The notes under the pieces: model-generated | Databases searched by the model: none | Told to the model about the DNA's origin: nothing | What the model saw: only the letters and a program-made list of their open reading frames with translations | In this document: one piece after another, positions 1,788-22,743 of the stretch | Layout of the letters: each line of letters starts with the position of its first letter | How positions within the stretch are numbered: position 1 is the stretch's first letter | Program-made: the position numbers and the translations under genes | IMG/VR virus record: IMGVR_UViG_3300049201_000036 | Location: 1 to 26,880 of that record | Source of the DNA: a virus | Lineage: Duplodnaviria > Caudoviricetes | Reading direction: 5' to 3' (one strand) | DNA length: 26,880 bases

Positions 1788-1887
1788 GCCGGCGAGCGTG
1801 GGAAGTATCCGCTTTCCCGCTACACCACAGCCCGCTCATTTTCTTACGGCTCCTTGCGGTTCCGTGCAAAAACTTGACGCCGCGGAC

Positions 1888-3717
1888 CTACACCATCGCC
1901 ATTCCAGCGGCGGGCGCGGGGTTGGCCTGTGATTGCTGGCGGGAAAAAAGCGCCATGGCTAGCGCGGCCATGCCATCGATGCGGCCCGTGTTTTTGTATT
2001 TCGCAAGCAGCATCCCCCCGCTTTGACCACGAAGAATAATTGCGTTTCTCGCGTGATTTTCGGCGATTGGATTTCCTCCGTGGTCGAGAGATCGCGAAAC
2101 GACATACCGCTCCATTTCGAGAAGCGGCGCTGTCATGGTGGAGTATCGCTGCAAACACGTGAGTGTTGGCATGCCGTGCTCGTCCTGAAACCGCTGCCCG
2201 ATTGCTCGCGCGTAGGCAGGATCATAGGAAATGAAGCCTAATTCGGAATCGGCAATTTGGTCTACGATGTCCTTTTCGATTTGCACTATGTCCGAAACGT
2301 TTCCCGGTGTCAGAGTCAGAAAGCCCTCGCACGCCCATAAGTCGTATGGCAAATGGTCCCTTGAGCAGCGGCCTATAAGGTCTTCGTCCGGCACCCAAAA
2401 ACGCCAGGCCGCAAGTAATCTGTTTGGGTTTTCGGGGTCTTCTGCGATAGCGCAGAATGCGCTTAGATCACCACTTAGGGCTAGGTCGAGTCCGCACCAA
2501 ACACGCAATCCTTTCATTCGCTCCCAGCACTCTCCGTGTGACAGTGGGCTGACGCTTCCTGAGCACCACGCTTCTGGGTCGAGCCAGCGCTCGGGTCCGG
2601 TGGTCTGGCGGATGTTGAGCTGCTTTGTGAGGAAGTCGCGGCGGGCCGACATGGAGGAGCGCGCGCCGGCCATGAGGGAGCGCATTTCGCCGAGGTCTTT
2701 CACGGTGCCGAGCGATGGGTTTGCCTTGTGCCATGTCGCCTCGTCGTCCCACTTGTCGCCCTTGTCCGGCTGCCAGAGGGCGCCGAAGTAAATGCCTTCG
2801 TCGGCGGTCGAGCCCTCGGGCAGGCCGCGGTAGGTTTCGCGCTCAACCGCCTCGAGCACGGCGACGACGCGGTCGTCCTGCTCTTTGAGGAGGCCGCAAG
2901 GGTCGTCGCCCTCGGTGGTGATTTGCAGGATGAGCGGAGAGAAAGCGGCGCCGCAGGCCGAGTTCATTACGTCCCACAAGCGGCGATCCTTCCACGCGTG
3001 GAGCTCGTCCATGTTGACCAACTCGGGGCGCAGGCCGTCGAGCGTGTCAGAATCGGAGCCGAGCGGTATCCACTCCGAGTTGCTGGCGTGGTGCTTGAGT
3101 GTCTTGTGATAGGCGCGGAAGTGTGGCGACCACTCGGCGCTCGTGCGAAGGAGCCCCATCGCGTCGTCTTTCAGCGCGATCTTGGCAATCTCCTCCTTGG
3201 TCGCGAGCGAGTAGACTTTTGCGTTGGAGCCCGGCGGGGGGTGCGAGAGCTGGAAGAGGCCGAGCGGCGCGATGAAGCCGGTTTTCCCGTTCTTGCGGGG
3301 GACCTTTATGAGCGCGTAGCGGAAGCGGCGTTTTTGCGGGTTCTCACGCTTCCGCCATCCGAAGATCATCGCGGCGCAGAAACGTTGCCACGGCAGGAAG
3401 CGCAGCGGTTCGCCGGCCCCGTGGCCCTGCAAGCCCTTGAACTCGGCGGCGAAGGCGGCGGGACGCGCGGCGCGGCGCACGTCGTAGACGAATGGATACG
3501 AGGCGCTGCGGGAAAAACCGAGGTCGAGCGCGTGGCGTTTGCACGCGAGGTGCACCCAGCGATTATGCTTCTTGGGGTGGGCGGCGACGTCCTCGGCGAA
3601 AGGGCGCGCCGGATCGTCTTGCGGGTAGGCGGCGAGATCCTTGGCGGTGAACACCCACCGCTTGGCTTTCAACTTGGCCGCCCGGCCGGCGCGCGGCTTG
3701 GGCGCGACGGGTGTCAT
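1888..3717 (-). CDS. terL: Terminase large subunit
   Basis: Adenine-binding LPWQRF, Walker A VPRKNGKT, Walker B MDELH, motif C ITTEG, nuclease GLDL, YDP and IDGMAAL. Start placed at ATG 3717, which overlaps the upstream stop (ATGA). Confidence 0.95.
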   Translation of the reverse strand: MTPVAPKPRAGRAAKLKAKRWVFTAKDLAAYPQDDPARPFAEDVAAHPKKHNRWVHLACKRHALDLGFSRSASYPFVYDVRRAARPAAFAAEFKGLQGHGAGEPLRFLPWQRFCAAMIFGWRKRENPQKRRFRYALIKVPRKNGKTGFIAPLGLFQLSHPPPGSNAKVYSLATKEEIAKIALKDDAMGLLRTSAEWSPHFRAYHKTLKHHASNSEWIPLGSDSDTLDGLRPELVNMDELHAWKDRRLWDVMNSACGAAFSPLILQITTEGDDPCGLLKEQDDRVVAVLEAVERETYRGLPEGSTADEGIYFGALWQPDKGDKWDDEATWHKANPSLGTVKDLGEMRSLMAGARSSMSARRDFLTKQLNIRQTTGPERWLDPEAWCSGSVSPLSHGECWERMKGLRVWCGLDLALSGDLSAFCAIAEDPENPNRLLAAWRFWVPDEDLIGRCSRDHLPYDLWACEGFLTLTPGNVSDIVQIEKDIVDQIADSELGFISYDPAYARAIGQRFQDEHGMPTLTCLQRYSTMTAPLLEMERYVVSRSLDHGGNPIAENHARNAIILRGQSGGMLLAKYKNTGRIDGMAALAMALFSRQQSQANPAPAAGMAMV

Positions 3718-3977
3718 GTTGGCAGCGAGAACAGGCCGGCGGCGCGTCGAGTGGAGGAGCGAGGCGACCACTCGGGGTGCGCGAGTATCCAGGCGACGGC
3801 ATCGGACGCGCGAACAGTGTAGCGGCAGGCGACAGGGGCGCCGGTTTCGCGCATGGCCTTGATGAGCCGCTGCGCATCCCACTCGGAATTGACGCGCTCA
3901 AGCCCGGCCGCAGCGAGGGCGTCGGGCAGCTCCTTGGAGCCAAGGAATCGCTCGGGCTTCGCGGCGGGTGCGATCAT
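3714..3977 (-). CDS. Small hypothetical protein between TerS and TerL, possibly DNA-binding
   Basis: 87-aa ORF coupled by ATGA overlaps to both neighbours. Confidence 0.65.
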   Translation of the reverse strand: MIAPAAKPERFLGSKELPDALAAAGLERVNSEWDAQRLIKAMRETGAPVACRYTVRASDAVAWILAHPEWSPRSSTRRAAGLFSLPT

Positions 3978-4423
3978 GCGGCGTCGGCGCCGTGCTCGGC
4001 GGCGAATGCAGCGGGGCCGGTCGGTGAATCGGATGCAGGCAAGCCGGCGGGCGAGCCGGACCGCGCACGGGCGGCAGGCGACAGGCCAAGTTTATCAGCG
4101 CAGCGTTCAATAGTCTTCTGGCTGGATATGCGGATATTGACCAGCGGGTTCACATACTGCCCGCCAGCTCCGGATGTGAGCGCCATGTTGTCCGGATTTA
4201 TCTTGCGCGAAAGCTCCGCGGCTTCGTTCACCGCCTGCGCATAGATCGCTAGCAAAACCGAGTCCGCCGCGGTCAACGTCTTCACGGTATCCGCGATGCG
4301 CCGATACTCCGCAGCCGCTCCCGGAAGCAGCCAGTCAGGCGGAGGCGGCAACGGCTCACCGGCCGACGTGTTGCCGGTTTTGTTGCCAGTCGCGGCGCGC
4401 GGAAGTGGTCCTCGTTGGCCCAT
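3974..4423 (-). CDS. terS: Terminase small subunit, P27 family
   Basis: MGQRGPLP N-terminus, PPDWL, LAIYAQA, YVNPLV and KLGLSPAARAR motifs; upstream of terL. Confidence 0.88.
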   Translation of the reverse strand: MGQRGPLPRAATGNKTGNTSAGEPLPPPPDWLLPGAAAEYRRIADTVKTLTAADSVLLAIYAQAVNEAAELSRKINPDNMALTSGAGGQYVNPLVNIRISSQKTIERCADKLGLSPAARARSGSPAGLPASDSPTGPAAFAAEHGADAA

Positions 4424-4425
4424 GG

Positions 4426-4611
4426 TTAGGCATTAGCCGAAGCCCATGCCTCGGCCGCTTCCCTCGTCTCGAAGGGGATAAGGCTAATCGGCTGATGCTT
4501 CCACACTCCGTCTTTCCCTACGAAAGCGGCGCTAAACTTGCCTCGCTTGCCCGAGTAGTCGACGACGATGAAGCCGCCCGCGTAATCTTCGATTTGGATC
4601 TGGTCGCTCAT
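4426..4611 (-). CDS. Hypothetical protein (61 aa)
   Basis: MSDQIQIEDY...FETREAAEAWASANA fills the gap between HNH and terS. Confidence 0.6.
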   Translation of the reverse strand: MSDQIQIEDYAGGFIVVDYSGKRGKFSAAFVGKDGVWKHQPISLIPFETREAAEAWASANA

Positions 4612-4616
4612 GGTTT

Positions 4617-4949
4617 TTAGTCTTTCCGCGTCAGCCCCGCACGCCGGTCCGCGTGAGTCTTCACGGCGTGGCATCGGCGGCAGAGCGATTGATGGTTGTC
4701 TGGGTTGAAAAAGTTGGCGTCGGACTCGCCGTGAACCGGCGTGATGTGGTCGACCAACTCGGCGAGCGTTGACCGATTCACCGACAGGCACCGCGCGCAA
4801 AGCGGATTCTGCGCGAGGTGTAGCGCTGCCGCCTTCTGCCACCTCGCACCATACCCACGCGCAGCCGAAGACGGGCGACGGTCAACCCGCGCGACCGTTG
4901 GCGCGGTAATTCTCGGGCGGGCTCCTAAAGTTGGTGGACGTTGCGGCAT
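4617..4949 (-). CDS. HNH endonuclease (terminase-associated, HK97 gp74-like)
   Basis: SAARGYGARW, NPLCARC, VDHITPV and NHQSLCRRCHAVKT motifs; adjacent to the packaging genes. Confidence 0.92.
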   Translation of the reverse strand: MPQRPPTLGARPRITAPTVARVDRRPSSAARGYGARWQKAAALHLAQNPLCARCLSVNRSTLAELVDHITPVHGESDANFFNPDNHQSLCRRCHAVKTHADRRAGLTRKD

Positions 4950-5245
4950 TTTCGCGAGCGCTGCGACAGGGTGACGCAATAGCACAACCCACGACTAGTG
5001 CACAAGCAGAAACCCCCGCCCCTATCAAAACTCCCTGTGTTTTCTTGAAGACACCAAGTGTGGTCTAGGCTGTTGGTCCATAGGCTTTTACCCCTCCCCC
5101 GGGGTGCGATATTGATCTGTAATGGATACGTGAATACATTTAGACTCGACAGGCCTCCCGAAGGGTGAAAGCCGTATAGCATACGGTTGCGCGCCGACGC
5201 GAAGCGCAGGCGGCAAGGCGAGCGGGAGCGGTAAGCCTTTGCTGG

Positions 5246-5412: not shown

Positions 5413-5532
5413 AGCGAACCAAGCGATACCGCTCTTGGGCTGATGCGTGCAAGTAGGTCCGCCGAGTGTGGCGACGATGTTGCGAGCGAGGCAGGCGGGG
5501 CAGTGGTCGGGTGCGATGCTTATTGGTTGAGC
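5413..5532 (+). repeat. Degenerate attC-like site (candidate)
   Basis: AGCGAAC-CAAGC at the left and GTTGAGC at the right, overlapping the end of ORF 5520-5816; arm pairing is weak. Confidence 0.35.
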
Positions 5533-5816
5533 GCGGATCGCTTCATGGCGCTTTCGATTTCGCTGAGTGCGGCGCGAATAGCCTGCTCGGCATCCAGCGG
5601 GGCGTGTGACCCCTTTGCGCCGACTGCTATCCATCCGGCCATCCAGTTGATGAGAGAGTAGGGGATTTCGTAGCGCAGTCCGGCGTAAGTCAGGATGGCC
5701 ACCGGCTCGGGCGGAACCGCAGGCCAAGCCGAAGGCCGCCACAAGAGAGCCGAATCAGGCACTGAGGAAGGAAGGCCGGTATCTGCCGGCGGTTGGGAGT
5801 TGGTTGGTGTTTCCAT
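5520..5816 (-). CDS. Hypothetical cassette protein whose N-terminus is encoded in the attC-like site
   Basis: 98 aa; N-terminus METPTNSQPPADTG is nearly the same as that of ORF 8120-8614. Confidence 0.65.
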   Translation of the reverse strand: METPTNSQPPADTGLPSSVPDSALLWRPSAWPAVPPEPVAILTYAGLRYEIPYSLINWMAGWIAVGAKGSHAPLDAEQAIRAALSEIESAMKRSALNQ

Positions 5817-5918
5817 GGTTGCGAGGATAGCTCATCCCGTGCGATGGCGACAACCCCGCAGGCGATGTTGTGCACGGTCTGATATACAAACGGCCGTTGG
5901 CTGAATCAGTGGTTAGGC
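5749..5918 (+). repeat. Degenerate attC-like site A
   Basis: GCCGAAT-CAGGC ... GTTAGGC; shares a 45-bp block (42/45) with site F. Confidence 0.55.
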
Positions 5919-6179
5919 GGAAATGGGTTCGGGGCGTTTCACGCCGGAGAATCCGCGGCGCTTGAGCTTCACTTCGACCTTGCCGACCGTCTTTCCGCGA
6001 CGGTCCTTGGCGGTCCAGTAGGCGTATCCGCCTTGCCACCACAGACTGTCGCCCTCGGATATGGAGCGAGCCTCCGCCGTGTTCTCGACGTAGATTGCGC
6101 AGGTGTCGCGCTTGTCCTGAGTGTTCACCCATACGCGATCACCGACGACGATTGTTTCGATTACTTTTCCACCGACCAT
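5913..6179 (-). CDS. Hypothetical cassette protein (beta-rich, 88 aa)
   Basis: AAGGA RBS upstream; TAA stop lies inside GTTAGGC; bounded by complementary R boxes. Confidence 0.8.
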   Translation of the reverse strand: MVGGKVIETIVVGDRVWVNTQDKRDTCAIYVENTAEARSISEGDSLWWQGGYAYWTAKDRRGKTVGKVEVKLKRRGFSGVKRPEPISA

Positions 6180-6225
6180 TTTAGTTCCTTTGTTGAGGTT
6201 GATTTTTACTCGAAAGATTTGAGGC

Positions 6226-6283
6226 GCCTAACCGGCCGCCGGTCGCAACGGGGCTACGCCCCGCGCGACGCCTCGGTGTTGGG
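6226..6283 (+). repeat. attC-like site B (58 bp)
   Basis: GCCTAAC-cggcc-gccggtcgc...gcgacgcc-tcggt-GTTGGGT, with one extra base in the left arm. Confidence 0.85.
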
Positions 6284-6478
6284 TAGAGACTGAAAGCGGT
6301 CCGCCGTTAACATCGTGACAAACGCGCATCCGGAGTCTGGCCCGGCTGCTTCGATGCCTTGGTCGGTCACGAAAATGGACATCTTGAGTTCCTCGCACCA
6401 AAACTGGATGCGATCAGGAGCGGCCACGCGGACGAATGTGAGGTTTTCGGTATGCTCGAATTTTTGTTTGGGAGTCAT
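6254..6478 (-). CDS. Hypothetical cassette protein (74 aa)
   Basis: Fills the B-C interval; C-terminus PNTEASRGA is read from site B. Confidence 0.7.
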   Translation of the reverse strand: MTPKQKFEHTENLTFVRVAAPDRIQFWCEELKMSIFVTDQGIEAAGPDSGCAFVTMLTADRFQSLPNTEASRGA

Positions 6479-6489
6479 GAGGGAAAATT

Positions 6490-6616
6490 GCCCAACCAGG
6501 CGGCGGGAAACAACGCTCGGGGCTCGCTGTGAACTATCCGGAATTTCAGGATAGTTGGCCGTTGTGTATTTCAGTTTTGGTTACGCTCGCGGGCGTTGCT
6601 GGTATCGGTGTTAGGC
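6490..6616 (+). repeat. attC-like site C (127 bp) with inner palindrome
   Basis: GCCCAAC-caggc...caacgctcggg / cgcgggcgttg...tcggt-GTTAGGC. Confidence 0.75.
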
Positions 6617-6822
6617 ATGATGATTTCCGCGTTGCCCGCGTAGGATGTCCCGGCATCCCGGTAGAACCACCAAGCGCCGCACGAGCTATCGACCGCGAAG
6701 CTATGGCCATCGGCGCAGCACACGGTCATCTCCATGTCGCCGGCTTTGTGCGCGATGTTGTCGGAGTGATTTCGCACCATGACTTTATCGCCGATCTGGA
6801 TGTTACTGAGTTTTGTTTTCAT
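6571..6822 (-). CDS. Hypothetical cassette protein (MKTKLSNIQIGDKV...)
   Basis: Fills the C-D interval; C-terminus is read from site C. Confidence 0.7.
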   Translation of the reverse strand: MKTKLSNIQIGDKVMVRNHSDNIAHKAGDMEMTVCCADGHSFAVDSSCGAWWFYRDAGTSYAGNAEIIMPNTDTSNARERNQN

Positions 6823-6834
6823 GGGAAATCTGGA

Positions 6835-6921
6835 GCCCAACTAGGCGGTAGAGAAACAACGCTCGATGCTCGCCGTGAGCTATCCGGAAATTCCGGATAG
6901 TTGGCTGGAACGGTGTTCACC
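6835..6921 (+). repeat. Truncated or hybrid attC-like site D
   Basis: The left ~73 bp repeat the left part of site C; the right arm does not pair; ends cggt-GTTCACC on the DnaC-like stop codon. Confidence 0.6.
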
Positions 6922-7636
6922 GCGCGAAGTCGACGACCTCGCAGATATCCAAGAGGCGGGTCAGGATCGCGTCTTGTCGGATGGCGTTGCGGTCGTTTGT
7001 GCCGGCGATTTCGGCCGAGCGGAGGTTGGTCGAGGCGATGAGCGGAAGGGCGAGCTCGCGGCGGATGTCGAGGAACTGCATAAACCAGCCCTCCGACCAA
7101 TCGGCGCGGGCTGAGAGCATGGCCTGCTGCCCGATGTCATCCATGATGAATACGGGGGCGTTGGCTTGGTCGCGCACCCATCGGCGGGCGTCGTCGGTGC
7201 CGTAGCGAACCTGCTCGTTGAGGCGGGCGAACCAGTCGGCCGCTTTGGCGTAGCGCACGGTGACGCGCTCGTCGATGGCGAGGCGGCGGTATAGATCCGC
7301 AATCGCGCGGGTCTTGCCGCGGCCGGACGGACCGGCTGCCAGGATGCCGCGCGGGGATAGCTGCCAGCCGCGAATGCGTGCGATTTGCGGGGCATACGGG
7401 GCAAGGTTGGGGTTGTCCCACTGGGTGGTGCGGTATGTCGGCCCGATGTCGCTTTCGTAGGCTGCCAGCCGAGCGGCCGCGACCTGCTCGGCGATCATGC
7501 GGGCGGCTCGGGCTTGGCGGCGGGTTGCGATCTCCTCGGGCGACTCGGCCGGTATGCTCGCCATGTCCACGCCGAGTTGGGCGGCGAGAACGGCGACAAA
7601 GTCGGCGACTGGGGCGGGAGATTCGCGGGTGCTCAT
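6917..7636 (-). CDS. DnaC/IstB-like AAA+ ATPase (helicase loader)
   Basis: Walker A GPSGRGKT, Walker B FIMDDIG, IASTNL sensor and ILTRL; start placed at ATG 7636. Confidence 0.88.
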   Translation of the reverse strand: MSTRESPAPVADFVAVLAAQLGVDMASIPAESPEEIATRRQARAARMIAEQVAAARLAAYESDIGPTYRTTQWDNPNLAPYAPQIARIRGWQLSPRGILAAGPSGRGKTRAIADLYRRLAIDERVTVRYAKAADWFARLNEQVRYGTDDARRWVRDQANAPVFIMDDIGQQAMLSARADWSEGWFMQFLDIRRELALPLIASTNLRSAEIAGTNDRNAIRQDAILTRLLDICEVVDFAR

Positions 7637-7673
7637 GTTATCCGACGCTGAGTCGCACAATCACTTGTTCAGC
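7631..7673 (+). repeat. attI-like site 1 (40-bp repeat copy 1 plus R box GTTCAGC)
   Basis: GCTCATGTTATCCGACGCTGAGTCGCACAATCACTTGTTC, 38/40 identical to 13005-13044; not a hairpin; heads array 2. Confidence 0.7.
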
Positions 7674-8058
7674 AAAGCGCAGCAGCTGCCTTTTCCAGCG
7701 CCTCGGCTTCTTCTAGTGCCCGGCGTGCTTCCGCGCGTTTTTCAGCCGCCTTTTCCGCTGGATTATCCGCCATCTGGCTTCGCAGGTGTGTGATAGCCGA
7801 CGAGACCGTTGCGTGCGTCATCGCAAGCGCCCGCCCCGGCCCATGCATGGTCCACGAGAGATCGTAGTATGGGTTTTCCTGCCACCGGTATTCGCGCAGA
7901 TTACAGTTTAGTTCGAGATCGGGGGTGAGCAGCCCAGCGGAGCGGCTCGCCGAAAGACGCGCAGCGACCCACATACAGACATCGGCTTCGGTGATGCGAT
8001 CGAGAATTGTCAGGTCGATTTGATCGGCCGGGATTTTGGTGTATTCGGACATGTGCAT
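7669..8058 (-). CDS. Hypothetical cassette protein (129 aa, helical C-terminus)
   Basis: TGA stop inside GTTCAGC; fills the attI-like 1 to E interval. Confidence 0.75.
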   Translation of the reverse strand: MHMSEYTKIPADQIDLTILDRITEADVCMWVAARLSASRSAGLLTPDLELNCNLREYRWQENPYYDLSWTMHGPGRALAMTHATVSSAITHLRSQMADNPAEKAAEKRAEARRALEEAEALEKAAAALC

Positions 8059-8083
8059 GTTTTTGTGAGGTTAAATTTTCGGA

Positions 8084-8189
8084 GCTGAACCAGGGCGCCA
8101 GAGCCAATGCGAATGGGCGTCAGGGGTTATTCGATAAGCGGCCAACGGACGGGCCTCGCCCGTCGCATGGCTCACCGCCGTTGTTCGAC
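8084..8189 (+). repeat. attC-like site E (106 bp)
   Basis: GCTGAAC...gagccaatgcgaatgggcg / cgcccgtcgcatggctc...GTTCGAC with extra bases in the left arm. Confidence 0.9.
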
Positions 8190-8614
8190 GAACCGGCGAG
8201 GGCCTGCTCGACGTCGAGGTGGAGCCACGAGTGCTCGTAGAGGATTCCGCCATGCTCCTTCGCCGCGGCGTGCACCTTCGCCAGAAGGTCCCGGTGCTGG
8301 ACGTTGCAGCGCGCGGCGAGACGGGCCTCGAAAGCACGGAGGTATCCCGGCGCGGCGAAGCCCTGTAGCCACGAGATCAGGGCGTTTTCGTTCGCCCCCT
8401 TGCCGTCCTCATCGTCGGGGATCACGCCGCCTGTCATGCGGCCGCGGTCCGGCTTATCGTGCCGGCGCTCGATCAGGAAGAGTGTCGTCTTCGGATCGTC
8501 GGCGAGATACCCGCGGAGCCATGCTCCGTCGGCATCCCACAAAATCGTCGAACCAGTCGCTGGAGGAGGAACGCCGGTAGCTGCCGGCGGTTGGGAGTTG
8601 GTTGGATTTTCCAT
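8120..8614 (-). CDS. Hypothetical cassette protein (164 aa)
   Basis: Starts inside site F and stops inside site E. Confidence 0.7.
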   Translation of the reverse strand: MENPTNSQPPAATGVPPPATGSTILWDADGAWLRGYLADDPKTTLFLIERRHDKPDRGRMTGGVIPDDEDGKGANENALISWLQGFAAPGYLRAFEARLAARCNVQHRDLLAKVHAAAKEHGGILYEHSWLHLDVEQALAGSSNNGGEPCDGRGPSVGRLSNNP

Positions 8615-8671
8615 GGTCAGAGAGAGGGCGAGGCATCGCCGCCACCGGCGTTCCTCAGCTGGTTGTTAGGC
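8547..8671 (+). repeat. attC-like site F (125 bp)
   Basis: GTCGAAC-cagtc-gctggag..gaggaacgccggtagc / gccaccggcgttcctcagc-tggtt-GTTAGGC. Confidence 0.9.
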
Positions 8672-8929
8672 ACGGAGCGATTGGCCCACTTGCCACGCAC
8701 GCCGGACGCTTGGCGGCAAGCTTGCCAGCTCCGACTCGTCGTAGTCGTCGAAGATGCCGATGCAGGCGTCTGCCGCGCGAAGCTTGGCAACTAGCTTGCG
8801 CACCTCTTCCGGCTCTCTCTTTAGGTCGTCGGCCGTGCAGACGGCGGCCAGCTTGGCGATCCGGCGGGGATGGGTCGCCGGAATGTTGTCCCGGCCAGGT
8901 GGCATTTTCGATGTATCTATGTTGTTCAT
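8666..8929 (-). CDS. Hypothetical cassette protein (87 aa)
   Basis: TAA stop in GTTAGGC; fills the F-G interval. Confidence 0.75.
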   Translation of the reverse strand: MNNIDTSKMPPGRDNIPATHPRRIAKLAAVCTADDLKREPEEVRKLVAKLRAADACIGIFDDYDESELASLPPSVRRAWQVGQSLRA

Positions 8930-8945
8930 ACGAAATAAAAAGGGT

Positions 8946-9002
8946 GCCTAACCTGACGCCTATCCCAACGAGCTGCGCTCGTGGGATGCCTCGGTGTTCA
9001 GC
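8946..9002 (+). repeat. attC-like site G (57 bp)
   Basis: GCCTAAC-ctgac-gcc(t)atccca(a)cgagc-tgc-gctcgtgggatgcc-tcggt-GTTCAGC; two extrahelical bases. Confidence 0.92.
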
Positions 9003-9243
9003 CGAGGTCGGCGAGGAGCGTCCGGCCATCGTTGGCCAGCGCGAAGCACGCACAGGTTTCGCCGGTCATGTGTCCGTCATCGTCCACGACTTCGCATTCG
9101 CTCACGTATTCGATGAGGCCCACGTCTTCGAGCTGCTTGCAGTGCTGGTAGGTGTCGCCTTTCGCGGCGAGCCCGTCGTGGCCCTGCGATTGAGCGCGGG
9201 CGATGTTTTTCAGAAGCGTGATGTCACTTGGATGTAGTTTCAT
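8998..9243 (-). CDS. Hypothetical cassette protein, winged-helix-like (81 aa)
   Basis: Pattern LLKNI...CKQLEDVGLIE...FALANDGRTLL resembles a wHTH; TGA stop in GTTCAGC. Confidence 0.7.
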   Translation of the reverse strand: MKLHPSDITLLKNIARAQSQGHDGLAAKGDTYQHCKQLEDVGLIEYVSECEVVDDDGHMTGETCACFALANDGRTLLADLG

Positions 9244-9258
9244 TTTCGTGGCGTTTTT

Positions 9259-9352
9259 GCTGAACTAGACGCCGATCCCAACACGGGCCGTCGGCTGCAT
9301 TTGTTATTCGTGGGCCGGAGAGAGGCCCGTGTTGGATGCCTCGGTGTTCTCC
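9259..9352 (+). repeat. attC-like site H (94 bp)
   Basis: GCTGAAC-tagac-gccgatcccaacacgggcc / ggcccgtgttggatgcc-tcggt-GTTCTCC. Confidence 0.92.
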
Positions 9353-10188
9353 TAAAAGCCGGTATCGAAGCAGCCGCAGGGCATTGGCCACGCGTCCACA
9401 TCCTCCAGCAGCTTCATTTGCGCCTTGTCGGCCTTCACCAGATCTTCCCATGACCAGTGCCGCCCGAGGCCCTTCACCGTCGTCGCGGCGGTGGCGTTTC
9501 TTTCCATCTCCACGGCTCGCGCGAAGAGGTCCGGGTTATTCTTCGCCAGCTCGATCACGTCCACCTTGCGCGAAGCCGGGCAGTAGAAGCATGCGCTCTT
9601 TGCCGGCGTGAAGCCGGCTTTGCTCACGACGCGTTCGCACCAGACGCGATCCCAGCCCCAGTGGACCAGCGGATACTGGACCACGAATTTCTTGTCGTCG
9701 TAGTCCTTGAGCCGATGAGTCTCATTCACGTCGTAGCCGATGAGCTTCACGACCTTCCCACCTGCGGCCCACGCATCGAGCGCGGGTTGCCACTTGGCGA
9801 GGTAGCGATTTTGCGGCCGCACCTTGTATTTGTCGGAGCAGGATCGGAAGCCGAACGCCAGAGAGGGCAGCGTGTTCGCGGCGCGCACTTCTGCTTCCAG
9901 CGTGGTCCGGCCGTCCTTCACGATGGTTACGGGCGGCAGGCCCTTCATCACGAGCCACGCCGAGAAGGCGTGCACGAATTCGTAGGTCTCGGGCCTCTCA
10001 CCTCCAGTGTCGGAGAAGAGGATTAGATCGGGGACGACGTGGCGCACCGCTGCCATTTCGATGAGCATGGCGGCGCTATTGGTTCCGCCCCCGAAAGAGA
10101 CCACGATGGGCCATTTTACGGAGGGAGAACCGGCCGCCTCAGACAAGCCGGCTACGGTCCGGCCGGCGGGAGCTTTGAGGGTATTCAT
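9352..10188 (-). CDS. PAPS-reductase-like / PP-loop adenine nucleotide alpha-hydrolase protein carried as a cassette
   Basis: IVVSFGGGTNSAAM PP-loop, FSDTGGERPETY, CSDKYK, YPL and KSACFYCP Cys motif. Confidence 0.85.
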   Translation of the reverse strand: MNTLKAPAGRTVAGLSEAAGSPSVKWPIVVSFGGGTNSAAMLIEMAAVRHVVPDLILFSDTGGERPETYEFVHAFSAWLVMKGLPPVTIVKDGRTTLEAEVRAANTLPSLAFGFRSCSDKYKVRPQNRYLAKWQPALDAWAAGGKVVKLIGYDVNETHRLKDYDDKKFVVQYPLVHWGWDRVWCERVVSKAGFTPAKSACFYCPASRKVDVIELAKNNPDLFARAVEMERNATAATTVKGLGRHWSWEDLVKADKAQMKLLEDVDAWPMPCGCFDTGF

Positions 10189-10245
10189 TGGTTGGTTACG
10201 CTGTCGTTAGATTAGGGGGCCGGCTGTCTGGCCTCGGTGTTGTGC
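10124..10245 (+). repeat. attC-like site I (122 bp)
   Basis: GGAGAAC-cggcc-gcc(t)cagaca(a)gccggc / gccggctgtctggcc-tcggt-GTTGTGC; contains one start codon and one stop codon. Confidence 0.9.
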
Positions 10246-10421
10246 GGAAGATAAAGGGTGGTCCAGTAGTGGCCGCATTCCGCATGCTGAAGCGCTGTAA
10301 GTGTCTCCCATCCTTCGTTGAAGAGACGTGCCATTATCGCGATACCGGCTCGCGCGCTGCCGTGCGTGAAGATGATCTCCATCGTGCGGGCTGGGAGTTT
10401 ATCTTGTTCGGTGAGTTGCAT
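10212..10421 (-). CDS. Hypothetical cassette protein (69 aa)
   Basis: Fills the I-J interval; C-terminus HNTEARQPAP is read from site I. Confidence 0.65.
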   Translation of the reverse strand: MQLTEQDKLPARTMEIIFTHGSARAGIAIMARLFNEGWETLTALQHAECGHYWTTLYLPHNTEARQPAP

Positions 10422-10438
10422 GCTGAGTTAAGTTTTCA

Positions 10439-10498
10439 GCCTAACCAGACGGCCTGTCGCAACGTGGCTACGCCCCGCGCGACGCCTCGGTGTTAAAA
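10439..10498 (+). repeat. attC-like site J (60 bp), sister of site B
   Basis: GCCTAAC...gtcgc...gcgacgcctcggt-GTTAAAA; its 29 bp ending in GTT are identical to site B. Confidence 0.85.
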
Positions 10499-11434
10499 CG
10501 CATTCCTGCGCTGCATGATCGGGTCGTCGGGCGACATGCCCGGGTATTCGCGGGACGTGCCGTGGCCGTGGGCTTTCGCGATGTCGCAGCGGGCCCAGTG
10601 CCGGGCCAAGGCCGGCGCAGTCAGGGCGGCGCCGTCGAAGTGCGTGTGGTAGTTCGCGGCACGTCGGGCGATTTCGAACGGCGTCAGGTCGGGCGAGACC
10701 TTGACGATCTTGGCAAGGGACACGCCGACAGCTCGTGCGGTGTCGGCGGTCAGCTGGGACGGCGCGCCGTCTGTGGCCTCGGCAAGGGCGTCGAAGAGCG
10801 GGTTGCGGTCGCGGGTTCTGGGCGGCGTTGCGGCGGGCGTGGCAGGGGCAGGGGCAGGCGGCGGAGGCGGGGTTGGCTCAGGTGCGGCGGGAGGCACCGC
10901 GAAAAGCTCTGCGGCCTCGCCCCCATCCGGTGCCCCGGCAGGGGCGGCGGAAGATTGATTCCCTTTCTCCTTCCTTTCCCCTTCTCCTTCCCTTTCCCCT
11001 TCCGCTTTCGCAAAAATAACCGACGTTGGTTTCTCTTGGGTTATGCCGTGGGTTATCTCGTGGGGGCCAACGTTGGGTCCCACGTTGGCCCCGGTATTGG
11101 TTTTTTCAGGACGGCCACCACGCAGGCCGTTCTTGCGGGCAACCTCGCGCCGAGTCTTCACCTCGTTCTCTTTTTCTCCGGGGTAAAAGCCGACGATCAG
11201 GTCGTCGCCATCCCACTTCCAGAGGCCGCAAGAGACCGAGACCTCGCGCAGGGTGACGCGGGCGAGCTGCTGCCACTGGCGATCCTTCCAAGTGCGTCCG
11301 CCGACGATGCGGCCGGAGTTCTCTTGGCCGATACAGAAGCGGAGCAGGCAGAGCCAGGTCGAGCGCTCGACGGGTGATGAGCCGACGAACTCGGGGGAGT
11401 CGAGGGTGGATGTGTGAAGATTAAGCCAGTCCAT
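10493..11434 (-). CDS. Phage replication initiator-like protein
   Basis: MDWLNLH N-domain, RKNGLRGGRP, repeat-rich linker, EGEREGEGE tract and helical C-domain ending LARHW; upstream of the DnaC-like gene in the operon. Confidence 0.75.
   Translation of the reverse strand: MDWLNLHTSTLDSPEFVGSSPVERSTWLCLLRFCIGQENSGRIVGGRTWKDRQWQQLARVTLREVSVSCGLWKWDGDDLIVGFYPGEKENEVKTRREVARKNGLRGGRPEKTNTGANVGPNVGPHEITHGITQEKPTSVIFAKAEGEREGEGERKEKGNQSSAAPAGAPDGGEAAELFAVPPAAPEPTPPPPPAPAPATPAATPPRTRDRNPLFDALAEATDGAPSQLTADTARAVGVSLAKIVKVSPDLTPFEIARRAANYHTHFDGAALTAPALARHWARCDIAKAHGHGTSREYPGMSPDDPIMQRRNAF
10960..11092. promoter_or_regulatory. Candidate replication origin inside the initiator gene
   Basis: ~12-bp phased repeats TGGGTTATGCCG / TGGGTTATCTCG, an 11-bp inverted repeat (11063-11073 / 11082-11092) and an adjacent purine/pyrimidine-skewed tract, as in lambdoid O genes. 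Confidence 0.55.
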
Positions 11435-11688
11435 GGCTAGAAAAGAGACTCCGCGCCCCGCGTCCATTTTTGGAAAGACCCTCGAAAGACAAAGGGCGTG
11501 GACGCGGTGGCGCGGGTAATTGGGTGGTGTCTTTCATTTGAACTGAGACTTTTCCGGCGCTTTCCACGCACCGAACCTAAGCCTGAATCGGTCGTAGAAA
11601 TCGGCGCGTGAACTTCAAGCAAGTATTGGTGATATGAATACGTATGTGCGGATTCACTCCGCCATTACGAAAACTTACGGCGGTTAGG

Positions 11689-11898
11689 TTATTTTGAGGC
11701 GATGCAGTCGCCGTCGGTGTTGTAGCCGTCAAAGGCAAAGAAGCAGACAGGGGCGAGTGTGCATCCGTCGCATGTGAACTCGGAAACCTTGCGGCCCTCC
11801 TGCCTCTCGCGCTCCAGTGATTCGTGGCGAAGCTCCGCAAGTTCGTCCGGAGTGCGGGGCGTCTTTAGGTCGGCGAACCTTTCTTCGTCTATGCTCAT
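11689..11898 (-). CDS. Small Cys-rich hypothetical protein
   Basis: CDGC-x4-C...C motif; ATGA overlap with the upstream ORF. Confidence 0.7.
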   Translation of the reverse strand: MSIDEERFADLKTPRTPDELAELRHESLERERQEGRKVSEFTCDGCTLAPVCFFAFDGYNTDGDCIASK

Positions 11899-12251
11899 GT
11901 CGGCATTTGAGCGTCTGCGCGGCCGGCGTGGTAGGCATCCACGACAGCGGACGCCTTGCCGACTTCGTGAGCGATGAGCGCGGGCGACGTTGAGCCGTGG
12001 TGTGGGGCGGCCTTTTCAGTGATCCACCACAGGACATGGTCACAGTCGCCGCTTTCCGTCAGTGCATCCTTCACATCCTGAGGCGCGCCCAACTTATCCA
12101 GCGCGGCAAGCAGGGTGTTGGTTAGGTTGCTGAGAAGGACGATGGTCGTTTTGCTAATCGGTGCCGGAGTAAATCCGGCGTCATAAAGTCCAGCATTTAG
12201 GACTCTCTGGGTTTCGGGGGCATGCGGTCCTAGTTTGTTTGTGGTGTTCAT
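11895..12251 (-). CDS. Hypothetical protein (118 aa)
   Basis: ATGA overlaps at both ends. Confidence 0.65.
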   Translation of the reverse strand: MNTTNKLGPHAPETQRVLNAGLYDAGFTPAPISKTTIVLLSNLTNTLLAALDKLGAPQDVKDALTESGDCDHVLWWITEKAAPHHGSTSPALIAHEVGKASAVVDAYHAGRADAQMPT

Positions 12252-12538
12252 GGGTGGTTTGGAAAAAACGTCGGCAACTCAGTGCACGGCGGCGTGAGGT
12301 AAGCATCTCGCCACGCCTCCACGTCCCATTGGTAGAGCGGAAGCGCTAGGTCCACGGTGCGGAGTTCGTCGCGGTCCTCACGGATCATTGGAATCCGCGG
12401 AAGCAGGATCGTCGCAATGATAGGCGCTGGCCTACGGCGTGGCTTGCTGACCTTCGGTGCGGCCGGCTTCCGCTTTTCAACGTGGCGGCCATACCAGTGC
12501 GCCGTGACCTTGCGGCCTTGATAGATGATGCGCCTCAT
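12248..12538 (-). CDS. Hypothetical basic protein (96 aa)
   Basis: Operon position and stop/start overlap. Confidence 0.6.
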   Translation of the reverse strand: MRRIIYQGRKVTAHWYGRHVEKRKPAAPKVSKPRRRPAPIIATILLPRIPMIREDRDELRTVDLALPLYQWDVEAWRDAYLTPPCTELPTFFPNHP

Positions 12539-12551
12539 AATCGGGTCGGTG

Positions 12552-13010
12552 TTACGGGAAAATTTCCTGCGTGGCCCAAGTTCCCGCGCGCCTGTCGCGC
12601 CAAACGAGAACGAAGCGAATGAAGGGAAAGAGGCGGGCTGCGACCTTGAGCTTCACCGCGGCGTCGTCGCGCATGTGGCCCTTGACCTCGTAGGCGGTGA
12701 GCCGCGATGAGCCGGCGGGGTCAGCGACCATGAAATCCGGATTGTAGCGCACGCCGTTGCCGAGCTTCAGGGCCATCGGCTCGCGTTCGATCCACGCGCC
12801 CGGATGCGTGGCCTTGAGGTGCGCAAAAAACAGCGCCTCGGTTTTGTTCATGCCGGCGCCGGACTGCCGGAGCATCACGCGGCCCTCCGCCGGGTGGTCT
12901 GGCCGAACCGCGACCGAATCGGCCGCTCGCGCACCGCCACCCAGCGTCGCCGCGATCTGCGCGCGGTATCGCTCGGGCAACGACGCGGGGTCTATTCGGG
13001 TCCGGCTCAT
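12552..13010 (-). CDS. PD-(D/E)XK nuclease, DUF1064-like
   Basis: MNKTEA, RYNPDF, AYEVKG and VKLKVAA motifs; start placed at ATG 13010. Confidence 0.8.
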   Translation of the reverse strand: MSRTRIDPASLPERYRAQIAATLGGGARAADSVAVRPDHPAEGRVMLRQSGAGMNKTEALFFAHLKATHPGAWIEREPMALKLGNGVRYNPDFMVADPAGSSRLTAYEVKGHMRDDAAVKLKVAARLFPFIRFVLVWRDRRAGTWATQEIFP

Positions 13011-13049
13011 GTTATCCGACGCTGTGTCGCTCAATCACTTGTTCGCTAC
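13005..13049 (+). repeat. attI-like site 2 (40-bp repeat copy 2 plus R box GTTCGCTAC)
   Basis: GCTCATGTTATCCGACGCTGTGTCGCTCAATCACTTGTTC; heads array 3. Confidence 0.7.
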
Positions 13050-13210
13050 TCGAGTTTCGTCACCAGATGGATGACTTCGGGTGTCGATGAGTTGTCGTAG
13101 GTGGCGACGCGCTGGATTGGCACGGACACTTCGCCGCAGACCCATTCGACCACTACTTCGGGGTCGCCGGGGAATGTATTCAGAATCTGGATGAGTTCGT
13201 TTTTAGTCAT
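13046..13210 (-). CDS. Hypothetical cassette protein (MTKNELIQILNTFPGDPEV...)
   Basis: Common phage small-protein N-terminal pattern; fills the cassette. Confidence 0.7.
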   Translation of the reverse strand: MTKNELIQILNTFPGDPEVVVEWVCGEVSVPIQRVATYDNSSTPEVIHLVTKLE

Positions 13211-13228
13211 AGGTTTCGTTGCGTTTGT

Positions 13229-13342
13229 AGCGAACCAAACGGTGGAGAAGCAACGCTCGGGGCTCAGGGGTTTTCGTGGCTTGGTCCAACGCTCGGGGCT
13301 CGCTGATCGCTCGCCCGAGCGTGTCTCACCTCGGTGTTCAGC
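13229..13342 (+). repeat. attC-like site M (114 bp)
   Basis: AGCGAAC-caaac-ggtggaga..caacgctcggg / cccgagcgtgtctcacc-tcggt-GTTCAGC. Confidence 0.88.
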
Positions 13343-13569
13343 TTGAAGATTCGCCGCCACATGGAGGGCCTAGATTTTTCATTCACGCGCACCGCGATCC
13401 TGCGCCGAAGCTCCGGGGCGTTGGCGTTCCGTATCTCATCGAGTTGCTTATTAGCCCAGTTCTCGCAGTCGGAGCACACGTCCTTGACGGTCGCCGTTTG
13501 GTAGCACGAGCGCAGGTCTGCCATGCTGCTGGCGGGTTGTTGTTTGCCGCATATATCGCATTTAGCCAT
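13264..13569 (-). CDS. Zinc-finger-like cassette protein
   Basis: CDIC...CSDC motifs; C-terminus is read from site M. Confidence 0.75.
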   Translation of the reverse strand: MAKCDICGKQQPASSMADLRSCYQTATVKDVCSDCENWANKQLDEIRNANAPELRRRIAVRVNEKSRPSMWRRIFKLNTEVRHARASDQRAPSVGPSHENP

Positions 13570-13595
13570 TTTGGTATTCGGTTGGTGGTTACGGA

Positions 13596-13689
13596 GCTGA
13601 ACCAGGCGTCGCAGAGAACCCGGCTAAGCGTGGCAGGTAGGCGTAGGGTTTAGGTGGTCGGGCCGGGTTCTCTGGCCTCGGTGTTCAGC
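13596..13689 (+). repeat. attC-like site N (94 bp)
   Basis: GCTGAAC-caggc-gtc(g)cagagaacccggc / gccgggttctctggcc-tcggt-GTTCAGC. Confidence 0.93.
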
Positions 13690-13881
13690 CTATAGCTCAG
13701 GGAGCGCGGCCACCTGCTCCTCGGTCATTTGTCGGGCTTCGATGGTGATGCTCTCGGCCTCGGGGTTTTCGTTGAGCCAGTTGGTGACGCCCGCGATGAC
13801 GGCGTTTTTGTCGTCGGTGACAGTGCGCGAAACTCCGTCCGCCATCTCGGCGGGGAGGACATAGTAGGTTTTCGTTTTCAT
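13690..13881 (-). CDS. Hypothetical acidic cassette protein (63 aa)
   Basis: MKTKTYYV...MTEEQVAALPEL fills the N-O interval. Confidence 0.7.
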   Translation of the reverse strand: MKTKTYYVLPAEMADGVSRTVTDDKNAVIAGVTNWLNENPEAESITIEARQMTEEQVAALPEL

Positions 13882-13902
13882 GGGATATTGTTGGTGTTCG
13901 AG

Positions 13903-13962
13903 GCTGAACCGGGCGGCGGAGGACGACGGCGCTAAGCGCCGCGCCTCACCTCGGTGTTCAGA
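13903..13962 (+). repeat. attC-like site O (60 bp)
   Basis: GCTGAAC-cgggc-ggcggaggacgacggcgct-a-agcgccgcgcctcacc-tcggt-GTTCAGA. Confidence 0.9.
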
Positions 13963-14111
13963 CTGCTTCGTGGCGCCTGCCAATCGAGGCGGGCGGCTGT
14001 GTCTTTCGCGGCCTTGAGGATCTCGACGTAACCCGTGCGTGGGTCGCGGTGCTTGCCGCGCAATGGGCTGAGCTTTCCGCACGCGGGCTTGGTGAAGAGG
14101 GGCTTGGTCAT
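13932..14111 (-). CDS. Hypothetical protein reading into site O
   Basis: ATG 14111 overlaps the upstream stop; ends LNTEVRRGA. Confidence 0.55.
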   Translation of the reverse strand: MTKPLFTKPACGKLSPLRGKHRDPRTGYVEILKAAKDTAARLDWQAPRSSLNTEVRRGA

Positions 14112-14616: not shown

Positions 14617-15272
14617 AGGGCACCTCCTTCCACCCGCTTGAACTCCACGACCCACACGTTGGGATTCGCGTCCCACGAGCCGGCGCCGTTGATGGATTCC
14701 CAGAGGGCGCGGTAGGAGCGGCGCGGGTCGGTGAATGCCTCCACCGGGCCTCCGCTTACATCCTTGTTAGGGAAATAGTTTCTCCAGAACACGGAATCGC
14801 CGTGCATGACACGCTCAATGCCCTCAGCCACCGCGTCCGCCTCGCTGATGTCCTGCAACCGCTCCACGCGGACGGAGGTGATTTCGAGGGTGATGCGGGA
14901 GGCGAAGCGGGGCATGTGAATCGATGGACGCCAGCGGAACACGGCGCGCAGGTCCCCACCTTCGTCGTCCGCCGGATAGCTGACATGGTAGCCATCAGGA
15001 AGCGCCTTCGGGATGCCCTTGGCGTAGTCGTAGGCGATACCCTCGCCGTCGTAGAGTCCCCAAGTTTCGCGGACCCAGAGCGTATCGCCGGGGGCGCCGT
15101 AGGGGCAGGGCAATTGATCCAGCGGAACGGGGTGGTCGCCGTTGAGGGACCATCCCTCCTCCCACTCGACAAGGTCGCCCTTGAGGATCCGCCGCGTCTG
15201 CCCCTTCGGGTCGATCTCGCGGAGCAACGCGCGCACCATCGGCGCGGAAAATAAAATGGGCCGGGATTTCAC
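14613..15272 (-). CDS. Conserved phage protein (RPILFSAPMVRA / WRPSIHMPR family, ASCH-like)
   Basis: CPYGAPGDTLWVRETW, SRITLEITSVRVERLQDISEADAVAEG and WDANPNVWVVEF; GTG start with AGGAGG RBS. Confidence 0.85.
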   Translation of the reverse strand: MKSRPILFSAPMVRALLREIDPKGQTRRILKGDLVEWEEGWSLNGDHPVPLDQLPCPYGAPGDTLWVRETWGLYDGEGIAYDYAKGIPKALPDGYHVSYPADDEGGDLRAVFRWRPSIHMPRFASRITLEITSVRVERLQDISEADAVAEGIERVMHGDSVFWRNYFPNKDVSGGPVEAFTDPRRSYRALWESINGAGSWDANPNVWVVEFKRVEGGAL

Positions 15273-15943
15273 GAGGCACCTCCTTTCGCGTCGGCATCCG
15301 CTGCGGTCGCTTTCCATTCGCCGATTGGGGCGAGATTAAAACGGGCTCGCGCCTCGTTGTAGCGGACGGCGAACGCGAAAAGCTCGGCTTCGAGTTTCTC
15401 GGTAAATTCATCCCGCACCACGCGCAGGTGAAACGGGGCAGCGTGGCGCGCATAGCTGAAGAAGTCCCACCACGGGCGGCCAGTCACGGCGAGGTAGCCG
15501 TGAACCTGGCACTTGTAGTCCGCCGGCAATACACCGGCGCGGACGTAGCCGATGTGAGTCGAGAGGTTGGGGCACTTGATTTCGACGCCGCCGGACTCGC
15601 CGACGATGGCATCAGGCGATCCGCCGAAAAGCCCGCTGTCGTGCATGACGAAGCCGACCTCCGAAAGCGGTTCCTTGGCGTGCTCCAGCTCGTAGCAACA
15701 CCGCGCCTCCGCCTCGAGCTTAACGCCCTCTTCCATATCGGGCGACATGAACGACGGCTTCAGCAGGCCCTCGGCAGGCGGGAGGATACTCTCGGCGACC
15801 AGCTCGTTAATGAGCTTGTCCTGCGCCGTGGAAGGCTGGCCCTTGGCGGCGGTCAGGATCTGGTCGAAGCGGCTGGCGGTGGGCACGCCGCGGCGGATAG
15901 TGAACCACTCCTCGGAGCGCTGGTTGAGGTTGTAGACCTTCAC
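15269..15943 (-). CDS. YqaJ / lambda-exonuclease-family recombination nuclease
   Basis: QRSEEWFTIRRGVPTAS, GGSPDAIV, VEIKCP and YKCQVHG motifs. Confidence 0.92.
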   Translation of the reverse strand: MKVYNLNQRSEEWFTIRRGVPTASRFDQILTAAKGQPSTAQDKLINELVAESILPPAEGLLKPSFMSPDMEEGVKLEAEARCCYELEHAKEPLSEVGFVMHDSGLFGGSPDAIVGESGGVEIKCPNLSTHIGYVRAGVLPADYKCQVHGYLAVTGRPWWDFFSYARHAAPFHLRVVRDEFTEKLEAELFAFAVRYNEARARFNLAPIGEWKATAADADAKGGAS

Positions 15944-22624: not shown

Positions 22625-22737
22625 GTGGTGCCACGATGCGCCACAACGTGCCACAATCAACACCGGAAAATCCCCTATGTTTTAACACACCTATTACTAG
22701 TATCTTATCGCCTATCTGTGCCACAACGCGCCACAAG
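22611..22737. promoter_or_regulatory. Divergent promoter region with six 10-bp operator-like repeats (GYGCCACAAN)
   Basis: Direct copies at 22628 (one mismatch), 22638, 22648, 22718 and 22728 and an inverted copy at 22611-22620, around an AT-rich spacer. Confidence 0.8.
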
Positions 22738-22743
22738 GGGACT

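Follow-up and report, generated by a model that had tools for sequence, protein, structure and literature searches.

The 26,880-nucleotide virus record IMGVR_UViG_3300049201_000036 (Duplodnaviria; Caudoviricetes), analysed along its whole length and referred to below as the window, carries between positions 5413 and 14111 arrays of integron attC sites whose cassette genes all lie antisense to the attC top strand. The interpretation favoured here, at a probability of roughly 75%, is that of a phage-adapted integron whose bottom-strand cargo would be read by a single early transcript towards an attI-like site, and which in this phage lacks a gene for the integron integrase (intI, encoding IntI). 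The strand selectivity of integrons is generally taught as a means of keeping captured genes sense to the cassette promoter Pc. The existence of a large phage pool of opposite polarity would mean that the same chemistry serves a second reading direction.

Strand assignment of the attC sites

The initial annotation of this DNA took plus as the attC top strand on account of extra bases in the left arm, and all three arms that it quoted are present in the sequence: GTC(G)CAGA against TCTGGCC in site N (13596-13689), GCC(T)ATCC in site G (8946-9002), and GCC(T)CAGA in site I (10124-10245). The rule applied, that an extra base in the 5' arm marks the top strand, follows the placement of extra bases on the R''-L'' arm by Bouvier 2009 (PMC2727003; here and below, sources are cited for their accessible parts) and was also checked against Nivina 2016 (PMC5027507) and on the two-strand aadA7 oligos in Table S3 of Qi 2023 (PMC9892861). 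A strand-symmetric detector returned six sites scoring at least 12, all with plus as top strand, against an average of 0.1 in ten dinucleotide shuffles. A covariance model built from 33 host attC sites matched 11 window sites on plus (10.9-30.1 bits), and its sole minus match overlapping the arrays, within site E, reached 8.8 bits; the training sites were short, opposed to intI, and found by the detector, with a structure written by hand, so that the model is not fully independent. Folding energy and spacer purine content did not tell the two strands apart in the window.

The window sites exhibit AAC/GTT boxes, spacers of 5-6 nt, paired L boxes, and extra bases on the R''-L'' arm, with sites A, B, D1, and D2 being degenerate or chimeric. 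At least two same-strand attC sites lie within 4 kb and intI is absent, which is the definition of an attC-site cluster that has no integron integrase (CALIN; 10.1101/030866). Off the arrays, near the end of the phage integrase gene, a symmetric hairpin with AAC/GTT ends (25251-25306) was scored on both strands; it was listed, as ambiguous, only by a stricter first version of the detector and is probably no attC. The sites and cassette open reading frames (ORFs) are as follows, G001 being a related phage.

5413-5532, plus: site A, degenerate attC-like; delimited by hand, contains the stop of ORF 5520-5816, left part common to G001, no covariance-model match
5520-5816, minus: cassette ORF; ATG at 5816 within site B, leader in common with ORF 8120-8614; the gene caller chose start 5702
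5749-5918, plus: site B, chimera of an F-type attC left arm and an attI-like right part (about 5862-5918, crossover after 5912)
5913-6179, minus: cassette ORF, 88 aa; stop within the R' box of site B, no Pfam or PHROG match
6226-6284, plus: attC site C; found by the detector, 30.1 bits on plus
6254-6478, minus: cassette ORF, 74 aa; runs across the crossover of site C with AAC in frame
6490-6616, plus: site D1, degenerate attC; 10.9 bits on plus
6571-6822, minus: cassette ORF; ends within site D1
6835-6921, plus: site D2, decayed attC at the stop of the DnaC-like gene; 25-nt palindrome, left arm deleted in G001
7631-7673, plus: attI-like site 1; crossover after 7667, heads a six-cassette array, start codon 30 nt from the crossover
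7669-8058, minus: cassette ORF, 129 aa; in the ORF list and by gene caller
8084-8189, plus: attC site E; 26.6 bits on plus
8120-8614, minus: cassette ORF, 164 aa; ATG at 8614 in the loop of site F, stop within site E; the caller chose TTG at 8542
8547-8671, plus: attC site F; 23.8 bits on plus
8666-8929, minus: cassette ORF, 87 aa; stop within the R' box of site F
8946-9002, plus: attC site G; covariance-model match, a near-identical body serves two other cassettes in G001
8998-9243, minus: cassette ORF, 81 aa; stop within the R' box of site G
9259-9352, plus: attC site H; detector and covariance model
9352-10188, minus: cassette ORF, PAPS-reductase-like, 278 aa; PF01507, PHROG 424, start within the loop of site I
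10124-10245, plus: attC site I; detector and covariance model
10212-10421, minus: cassette ORF, 69 aa; runs across the crossover of site I with AAC in frame
10439-10498, plus: attC site J; 24.7 bits, crossover after 10492 adjoins the stop codon of the likely initiator gene, junction with G001
13005-13047, plus: attI-like site 2; crossover after 13041, heads a three-cassette array
13046-13210, minus: cassette ORF, 54 aa; gene caller
13229-13342, plus: attC site M; 15.0 bits on plus
13264-13569, minus: cassette ORF, up to 101 aa; ends within site M
13596-13689, plus: attC site N; detector and covariance model
13690-13881, minus: cassette ORF, 63 aa; gene caller
13903-13962, plus: attC site O; detector and covariance model
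13932-14111, minus: ORF entering site O from the promoter side; gene caller

The loops of sites D1 and D2 contain a near-perfect 25-nt palindrome (6532-6556 and 6878-6902) that is kept in G001 and is possibly an operator or terminator.

Gene polarity in phages and host integrons

The claim that the cassette genes are all on minus was borne out, as the best minus ORF beats the best plus ORF in 13 of 13 inter-site segments; the DnaC-like, likely initiator, and resolvase genes in the 5520-14111 span are backbone between arrays, not cassettes. The window represents a temperate phage's early region. Between 480 and 22612 the gene caller placed all 44 of its genes on minus, so that the 5520-14111 span forms part of one leftward operon. 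The genes are thus co-oriented with the early operon and read towards the attI-like site, as had been proposed. By likeness to lambdoid phages, the early promoter is assumed to lie near 22612-22740; between 4900 and 14300 a scan for sigma-70-like promoters, which may not suit this host, returned none against 1.7 expected.

The host is likely a member of Verrucomicrobiota, since 16 of 20 genome loci with a relative of the initiator bear that title. As a control, 43 loci around intI were taken from genomes of this phylum; the same detector found 53 distinct sites in 20 of them, with the top strand opposite intI in 50 of 53, and the cassette's own gene was sense at 36 sites, antisense at 3, and uncalled at 14. 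Among the three antisense cases, one is an integrase gene and another overlaps the intI position.

Three phage samples showed the reverse. The first, chosen by the initiator protein rather than by attC (181 loci, 2.0 Mb, redundant records included), contained 42 distinct sites in 26 loci, against 3 in one shuffle, with 27 antisense, 5 sense, and 10 uncalled. The second, for which a generic L-box motif served as the query (102 viral loci, with sites in 44), gave 68 antisense, 8 sense, and 23 uncalled among 99 sites (per locus, 36 antisense, 5 sense, and 3 ties), and the third, drawn with a class-1-like motif (10 loci), gave 18 antisense, 4 sense (all in one locus, L396), and 8 uncalled among 30. 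Phages and hosts differ with Fisher P values of 2e-11 and 1e-18, both inflated by relatedness. The survey of ORF orientation that the initial annotation had proposed found antisense cassettes dominant throughout (27:5, 68:8, and 18:4); phage contigs in general show the reversed polarity, contrary to the 3:36 ratio of host integrons. Three records were left out of these counts because the detector, which is weak on AT-rich and long Vibrio-type sites, found 1-2 of the 16 reported sites in MK672802, about one in M16-3, and none above chance in P12002L; the host-trained covariance model missed them as well.

The suggestion of a phage-specific pool held in part. The pool is distinct from that of the hosts, carrying DNA-modification cargo and showing no blastp match to host cassette proteins, but it is not restricted to phages: phage TJE1 has 3 of 3 cassettes in sense orientation, and a chromosomal integron (L253 7470-8309, G116:C24), adjoining an ileS-like gene named by eye from sequence, holds three antisense phage-type cassettes with starts inside loops. 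With these exceptions the pool centres on phages without being confined to them, and host-type IntI apparently can take up antisense cassettes. An apparently inverted site in one phage locus (L401) was dropped, as the covariance model sets it on its neighbours' strand, and some phage "sense" calls may be similar strand errors; by the same model, this locus has 14 co-oriented sites.

Searches for further relatives returned little: the window-specific attC pattern had no match within the window, a looser pattern hit 26 viral loci, mostly by chance, although one was a genuine relative and another a second record of the present phage, the matches of two sites to annotated phages in blastn were all short and attributable to chance, and the DnaC-like protein had no match in metagenome contigs. 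Elsewhere, a viral contig carries a site resembling attC aadA7 when compared by eye, with antisense genes on either side (L393 3915-3974), and the detector found two related 146-nt hairpin elements with no adjoining gene calls (L081 5800-5945 and 9767-9912).

The initial annotation further suggested that transcription or phage replication could lay bare the recombinogenic bottom strand and so link cassette shuffling with lytic growth; as a rival account, this exposure would be the reason why the polarity was selected. By geometry, the bottom strand is indeed the non-template strand, attC folding is raised by a lagging-strand position and by supercoiling according to a review (PMC8946536), and polarity tracks local gene direction, flipping in one phage locus (L166). 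However, replication as the cause was not supported by the comparison of sites upstream and downstream of the initiator gene, which are antisense in 9 of 11 and 21 of 23 cases, respectively, the position of the origin being assumed by analogy with lambdoid phages. Equal polarity on both sides, together with the flips in L166, indicates that polarity follows transcription rather than two-way replication from that gene. Following transcription does not show that transcription drives recombination; the examined parts of the literature describe no effect of transcription on strand choice, and co-orientation with a phage intI (described below) plus the need for expression would suffice. This exposure model is therefore considered very improbable.

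Cassette boundaries and the attI-like repeat

The window elements are real cassettes, cut on the side predicted by plus as the top strand. In 10 of 13 neighbours, complementarity of the R' box to the next R'' box extends 3-6 nt past GTT, a sum matched by none of 20,000 permutations, and since the PAPS-reductase-like gene starts inside site I, this site must travel with the gene on its left. Over the 30 kb compared, G001 shares backbone stretches at 89-99.7% identity with the window and 0 of 13 cassette bodies. Five junctions were examined, lying at the two copies of the 40-nt attI-like repeat, in the right part of site B, at the stop codon of the initiator gene, and at the start codon of the small-terminase gene; every break falls on the G/TT crossover on plus or immediately past it. 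In G001, the right part of site B is followed after G/TT by another cassette.

The attI-like repeat has a constant left half to which three different cassettes are attached, two in the window and one in G001, and a contig from sequencing run X4 departs from the window after 13043, in the crossover region of attI-like site 2. On this sequence comparison, the repeat behaves as an attI would be expected to, with a fixed half and variable cassettes. Its end, AAT-n5-GTT, has a counterpart in only 1 of 45 host attC sites.

An alternative account regards the arrays as fossils whose cassettes are moved by homologous or slippage recombination acting on attC bodies of similar sequence, through the phage's Erf-like and YqaJ-like proteins (genes at 15269-16677) rather than IntI. 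Such a process would be in keeping with the absence of IntI from the contig, the chimeric site B, the decayed site D2, the duplicated attI-like repeat, and the recurrence of attC bodies at about 95% identity; it is judged quite unlikely, as the junctions fall at G/TT instead of along shared bodies and R'/R'' pairing is kept in 10 of 13 cassettes.

The same boundaries bear on the idea that minus is the true top strand, with mirror-image attC sites for a different recombinase and genes that are ordinary sense cargo. Many stops do lie in a minus-read RYYYAAC, as in classical cassettes, the extra base is often G on plus, and plus is often the more stable fold. On the other hand, host sites belonging to this attC family have the classical orientation with respect to their intI, the genes start in the right-hand site so that a left-end crossover would cut their starts off, and it is the left half of the attI-like site that is fixed. 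Contradicted already by the host control, the covariance model, and the G001 junctions, this idea deserves almost no credence.

Several further features were noted. A small minus ORF (4426-4611, within 4424-4616) ends in GTTAGGC adjoining the small-terminase start, where G001 has a different ORF at the same base, and is likely a cassette whose attC was lost. Right-arm remnants of the TCGGT-GTT type occur at gene ends between the arrays (11683, 11707-11725, and 12539-12557), and the run X4 contig skips 11674-12552. In G001 (L010 3254-3703), the end of the HNH gene is partly duplicated and joined at CATGGTT.

Phage-encoded IntI in relatives

Among 36 phage records with such arrays, seven encode an IntI-family protein, three of them above the TIGR02249 curated cut-off, and one aligns over its full length with the solved Vibrio enzyme 2A3V (E 5e-54, best solved relative). 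The phage intI genes are co-stranded with all their neighbours, often overlapping the starts or stops of these, and in five of seven loci antisense cassettes lie directly upstream of intI with their top strand opposite to it. Phage-only groups were recovered in a FastTree phylogeny of 56 IntI proteins (support 0.996, 1.0, and 0.968), and the phage proteins are 36-47% identical to the nearest sampled host enzyme. Placement of intI within the early operon of relatives, which the initial annotation missed, offers a simpler account of the polarity.

The distance from the intI ATG to the crossover is 14, 29, 29, 53, and 56 nt in phages versus at least 74 nt in hosts. In the window, the attI-like repeat likewise has an ATG 30 nt from the crossover, but one heading other genes (DnaC-like and resolvase). 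A scan for further phage IntI returned only the two query loci. Three early-region IntI-family genes with no attC called upstream (L124 18060-19022, L107 7953-8969, and L399 8907-9911) are possible empty phage integrons.

These findings also inform a different reading, in which no phage integron ever existed in the lineage: host IntI would have dropped cassettes at attG sites, short GTT targets located at the ends of genes, and selection would have kept the early-facing genes. IntI is reported to insert at GWT sites genome-wide (Loot preprint, bioRxiv 10.1101/2022.09.11.507474), crossovers in the window adjoin the initiator stop and small-terminase start codons, IntI occurs in 39 of 151 genomes of the likely host phylum, and the host-type G116 integron holds such cassettes. 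Against this scenario, which is regarded as unlikely, a fixed repeat heads the arrays, takes different cassettes at one base, and has phage attI spacing, while the IntI phylogeny contains phage-only clades; the source of bottom-strand cassettes would also be left unexplained, host cassettes being sense.

attC sites as translated sequence

The phage attC sites are fitted for translation on the bottom strand. At 128 distinct phage sites, 69 upstream genes cross the crossover, with AAC in frame in 67 of 69, whereas 17 end within the R box and 15 before it. A stop in the AAC (Asn) frame lies within the site in 119 of 128 phage versus 24 of 45 host sites (P 2e-8), a difference that persists after length matching (106 of 114 versus 16 of 22, P 0.012), and 48 of 88 called cases have an in-frame ATG inside the site. 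Many phage protein ends are consequently translated attC sequence, which matters for annotation.

The PAPS-reductase-like gene was found at 24 loci, one of them being this phage. At five other loci an antisense attC lies at the 5' end, with leaders that differ but are joined immediately ahead of the same conserved residues. The remaining 18 lack a called attC, one of these at 71% identity. Judged from the sequences, the coexistence of bare and attC-fused forms fits the capture of a phage gene. It also makes the question of cassette birth testable through comparison of the two forms in which one phage gene occurs.

Cargo of phage and host cassettes

Of 86 phage cassette proteins, 60 were scanned; most have no family, nine are DNA methyltransferases, and others are Mom-like, DpdA, PAPS-reductase-like, HNH, and Tad2-like proteins. 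Matches among the 21 host cassette proteins scanned (of 23) include ParE, GNAT, PIN, and immunity domains. A small blastp test of the 86 phage against the 23 host proteins gave no match. Antisense counter-defence cargo includes DpdA (L010 4243-4986), a Tad2-like anti-Thoeris protein (L075 12737-13033), and a Mom-like protein (L116 15551-16087). The phage-adapted integron would offer a site-specific account of why small early genes and DNA-modifying counter-defence genes turn over so fast in phages.

Proposed mechanism and its weak points

Under the phage-adapted integron interpretation, the early transcript would run along the bottom strand, through the cassettes, to an attI-like site of compact form. 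Relatives have the phage intI as their next gene on the bottom strand: attC, attI, and intI retain a normal geometry, only the cargo being turned round. An integron placed so that intI is expressed from the early transcript would be read along the bottom strand, making only bottom-strand cargo useful, and since IntI inserts in register, the polarity would perpetuate itself. Each attC precedes its own gene in the reading direction, often giving it a start codon, and gives the upstream gene an Asn-frame stop; reshuffled cassettes would therefore stay translatable. The present phage has likely lost or displaced its intI, the attI-like start codons now heading the DnaC-like and resolvase genes, and an IntI encoded by the host or by another phage resident in it would work in trans.

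If this interpretation is correct, host anti-phage cassettes entering a phage array are predicted to be silent. A broader and tentative view, put slightly below an even chance, is that tailed phages of several bacterial phyla run their own integron branch, with early-operon IntI, a minimal attI, cassettes made from ordinary phage genes, and attC sites serving as portable start/stop modules. On this broader view, the reversed polarity would allow phages and hosts to share a recombination chemistry while each pool is largely silent in the other's array, and phages would possess a site-specific engine for accessory-gene mosaicism, with a visible route of cassette birth.

A number of observations weigh against the phage-adapted integron. 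IntI is encoded neither in the window nor in G001 (estimated 33% and 56% complete, respectively), and because of this the putative loss of intI is deduced from spacing only. IntI is also missing from 29 of the 36 phage records, including six of the seven that are at least 90% complete. Upstream of intI, no cassette was called at two of the seven phage loci, and one more ATG-to-crossover value, the sixth, is 417 nt, a case that is likely missing a site.

The sites themselves are not fully canonical. The extra base on the bottom strand is C or A in the window, the canonical G being absent; among 128 phage sites the first such base is C at 94 and G at 11, and among 45 host sites it is C at 24 and G at 3, so that C instead of G is a lineage trait, and a G>C change has a minor effect (Bouvier 2009, PMC2727003). 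The bottom strand is the less stable fold in 6 of 10 intact sites, which differs from the average folding bias of Nivina 2016 (PMC5027507), and site I does not form a canonical hairpin on folding. R'/R'' pairing is gone at 3 of 13 junctions, and blastn found no copy of the attI-like repeat beside any host intI. The detector and gene caller are custom scripts of this analysis, and the P values given above overstate independence, as the sites are related by descent. Contigs from 4 of 19 sequencing runs contained no excision joint at attC, but contigs drop rare variants, so this absence is no evidence of inactivity.

Relation to known integron systems

The closest published likeness is found in the phage CALINs of Qi 2023 (PMC9892861), which are likewise phage attC clusters without intI, with methyltransferase cargo in related arrays. 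The main text of that study, as far as accessible, does not tabulate gene strand against attC strand, and its TJE1 example is sense in 3 of 3 cases. The window differs from these CALINs in its bottom-strand genes, arrays interleaved with replication genes, and translated attC sites. Sedentary chromosomal integrons of Verrucomicrobiota share with the window the attC family, the side of the extra base, and the G/TT crossover, and have similar attI ends. Their cargo is sense in 36 and antisense in 3 of 53 cases, versus antisense in 13 of 13 in the window, and consists of ParE, GNAT, PIN, and immunity proteins, compared with methyltransferases, DpdA, Mom, and Tad2 in phages. Phages, unlike these integrons, leave no space for a cassette promoter between start codon and crossover.

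Class 1 and Vibrio integrons (PMC2727003, PMC5027507) have in common with the window the R and L boxes, 5-nt spacers, and one or two extra bases on one arm. In those systems strand choice keeps genes sense to Pc and the extra bottom-strand base is G, whereas in the window the correct choice yields genes antisense to the top strand and the base is C or A. Single attC sites lacking integron integrases (SALINs) and attG sites (10.1101/2022.09.11.507474) resemble the window in having cassettes off-platform and GTT sites at gene ends, but the window has multi-cassette arrays, a fixed entry site, and one polarity, while the accessible part of the Loot study reports no insertion strand bias. In synthetic protein-embedded attC (PMC7439510), the site also doubles as coding or linker sequence; it is engineered there, and natural and frame-locked in phages. 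Treponema inverted-integrase integrons (10.1101/030866) have intI co-stranded with cassette genes, as in phages; in the latter, however, intI has its usual place opposite to the attC top strand, and the reversal concerns the cargo instead. Within open literature, subscription journals lying outside the scope, no published account of phage cassettes with bottom-strand genes, or of an early-operon intI in phages, was found, and the antisense phage layout is apparently a general, unpublished variant of the integron system.

Surrounding phage genome

The window is the entire record, a linear fragment whose early region is present from integrase through terminase. Pfam and PHROG scans identified portal, terminase, and HNH genes at 480-4985, followed by genes for a DnaC-like loader, resolvase, YqaJ, Erf, a methyltransferase, a repressor region, and a phage integrase. 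The main backbone genes are listed below.

6917-7636, minus: DnaC-like helicase loader; PHROG 3277 and 50, Pfam IstB, ATG within the attI-like repeat
10493-11467, minus: likely replication initiator, from position; no family match, 148 homologues, 99.7% DNA identity with G001
12552-13010, minus: Holliday junction resolvase-like gene; PHROG 190, ATG within the second attI-like repeat
25417-26664, minus: phage integrase, likely a bystander and not IntI; PF00589, PHROG 1

As a candidate for the enzyme acting on the cassettes, the integrase of the phage itself was set aside on sequence grounds, since it matches neither TIGR02249 nor any solved structure. As for a group IIC-attC intron, Pfam and PHROG scans found no reverse-transcriptase protein and an Rfam scan no matching intron RNA in the window, where Rfam gave chance matches only. 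Lastly, the strand that encodes the C5 methyltransferase also carries a second long open frame overlapping this gene (18204-19355 and 18212-19084).

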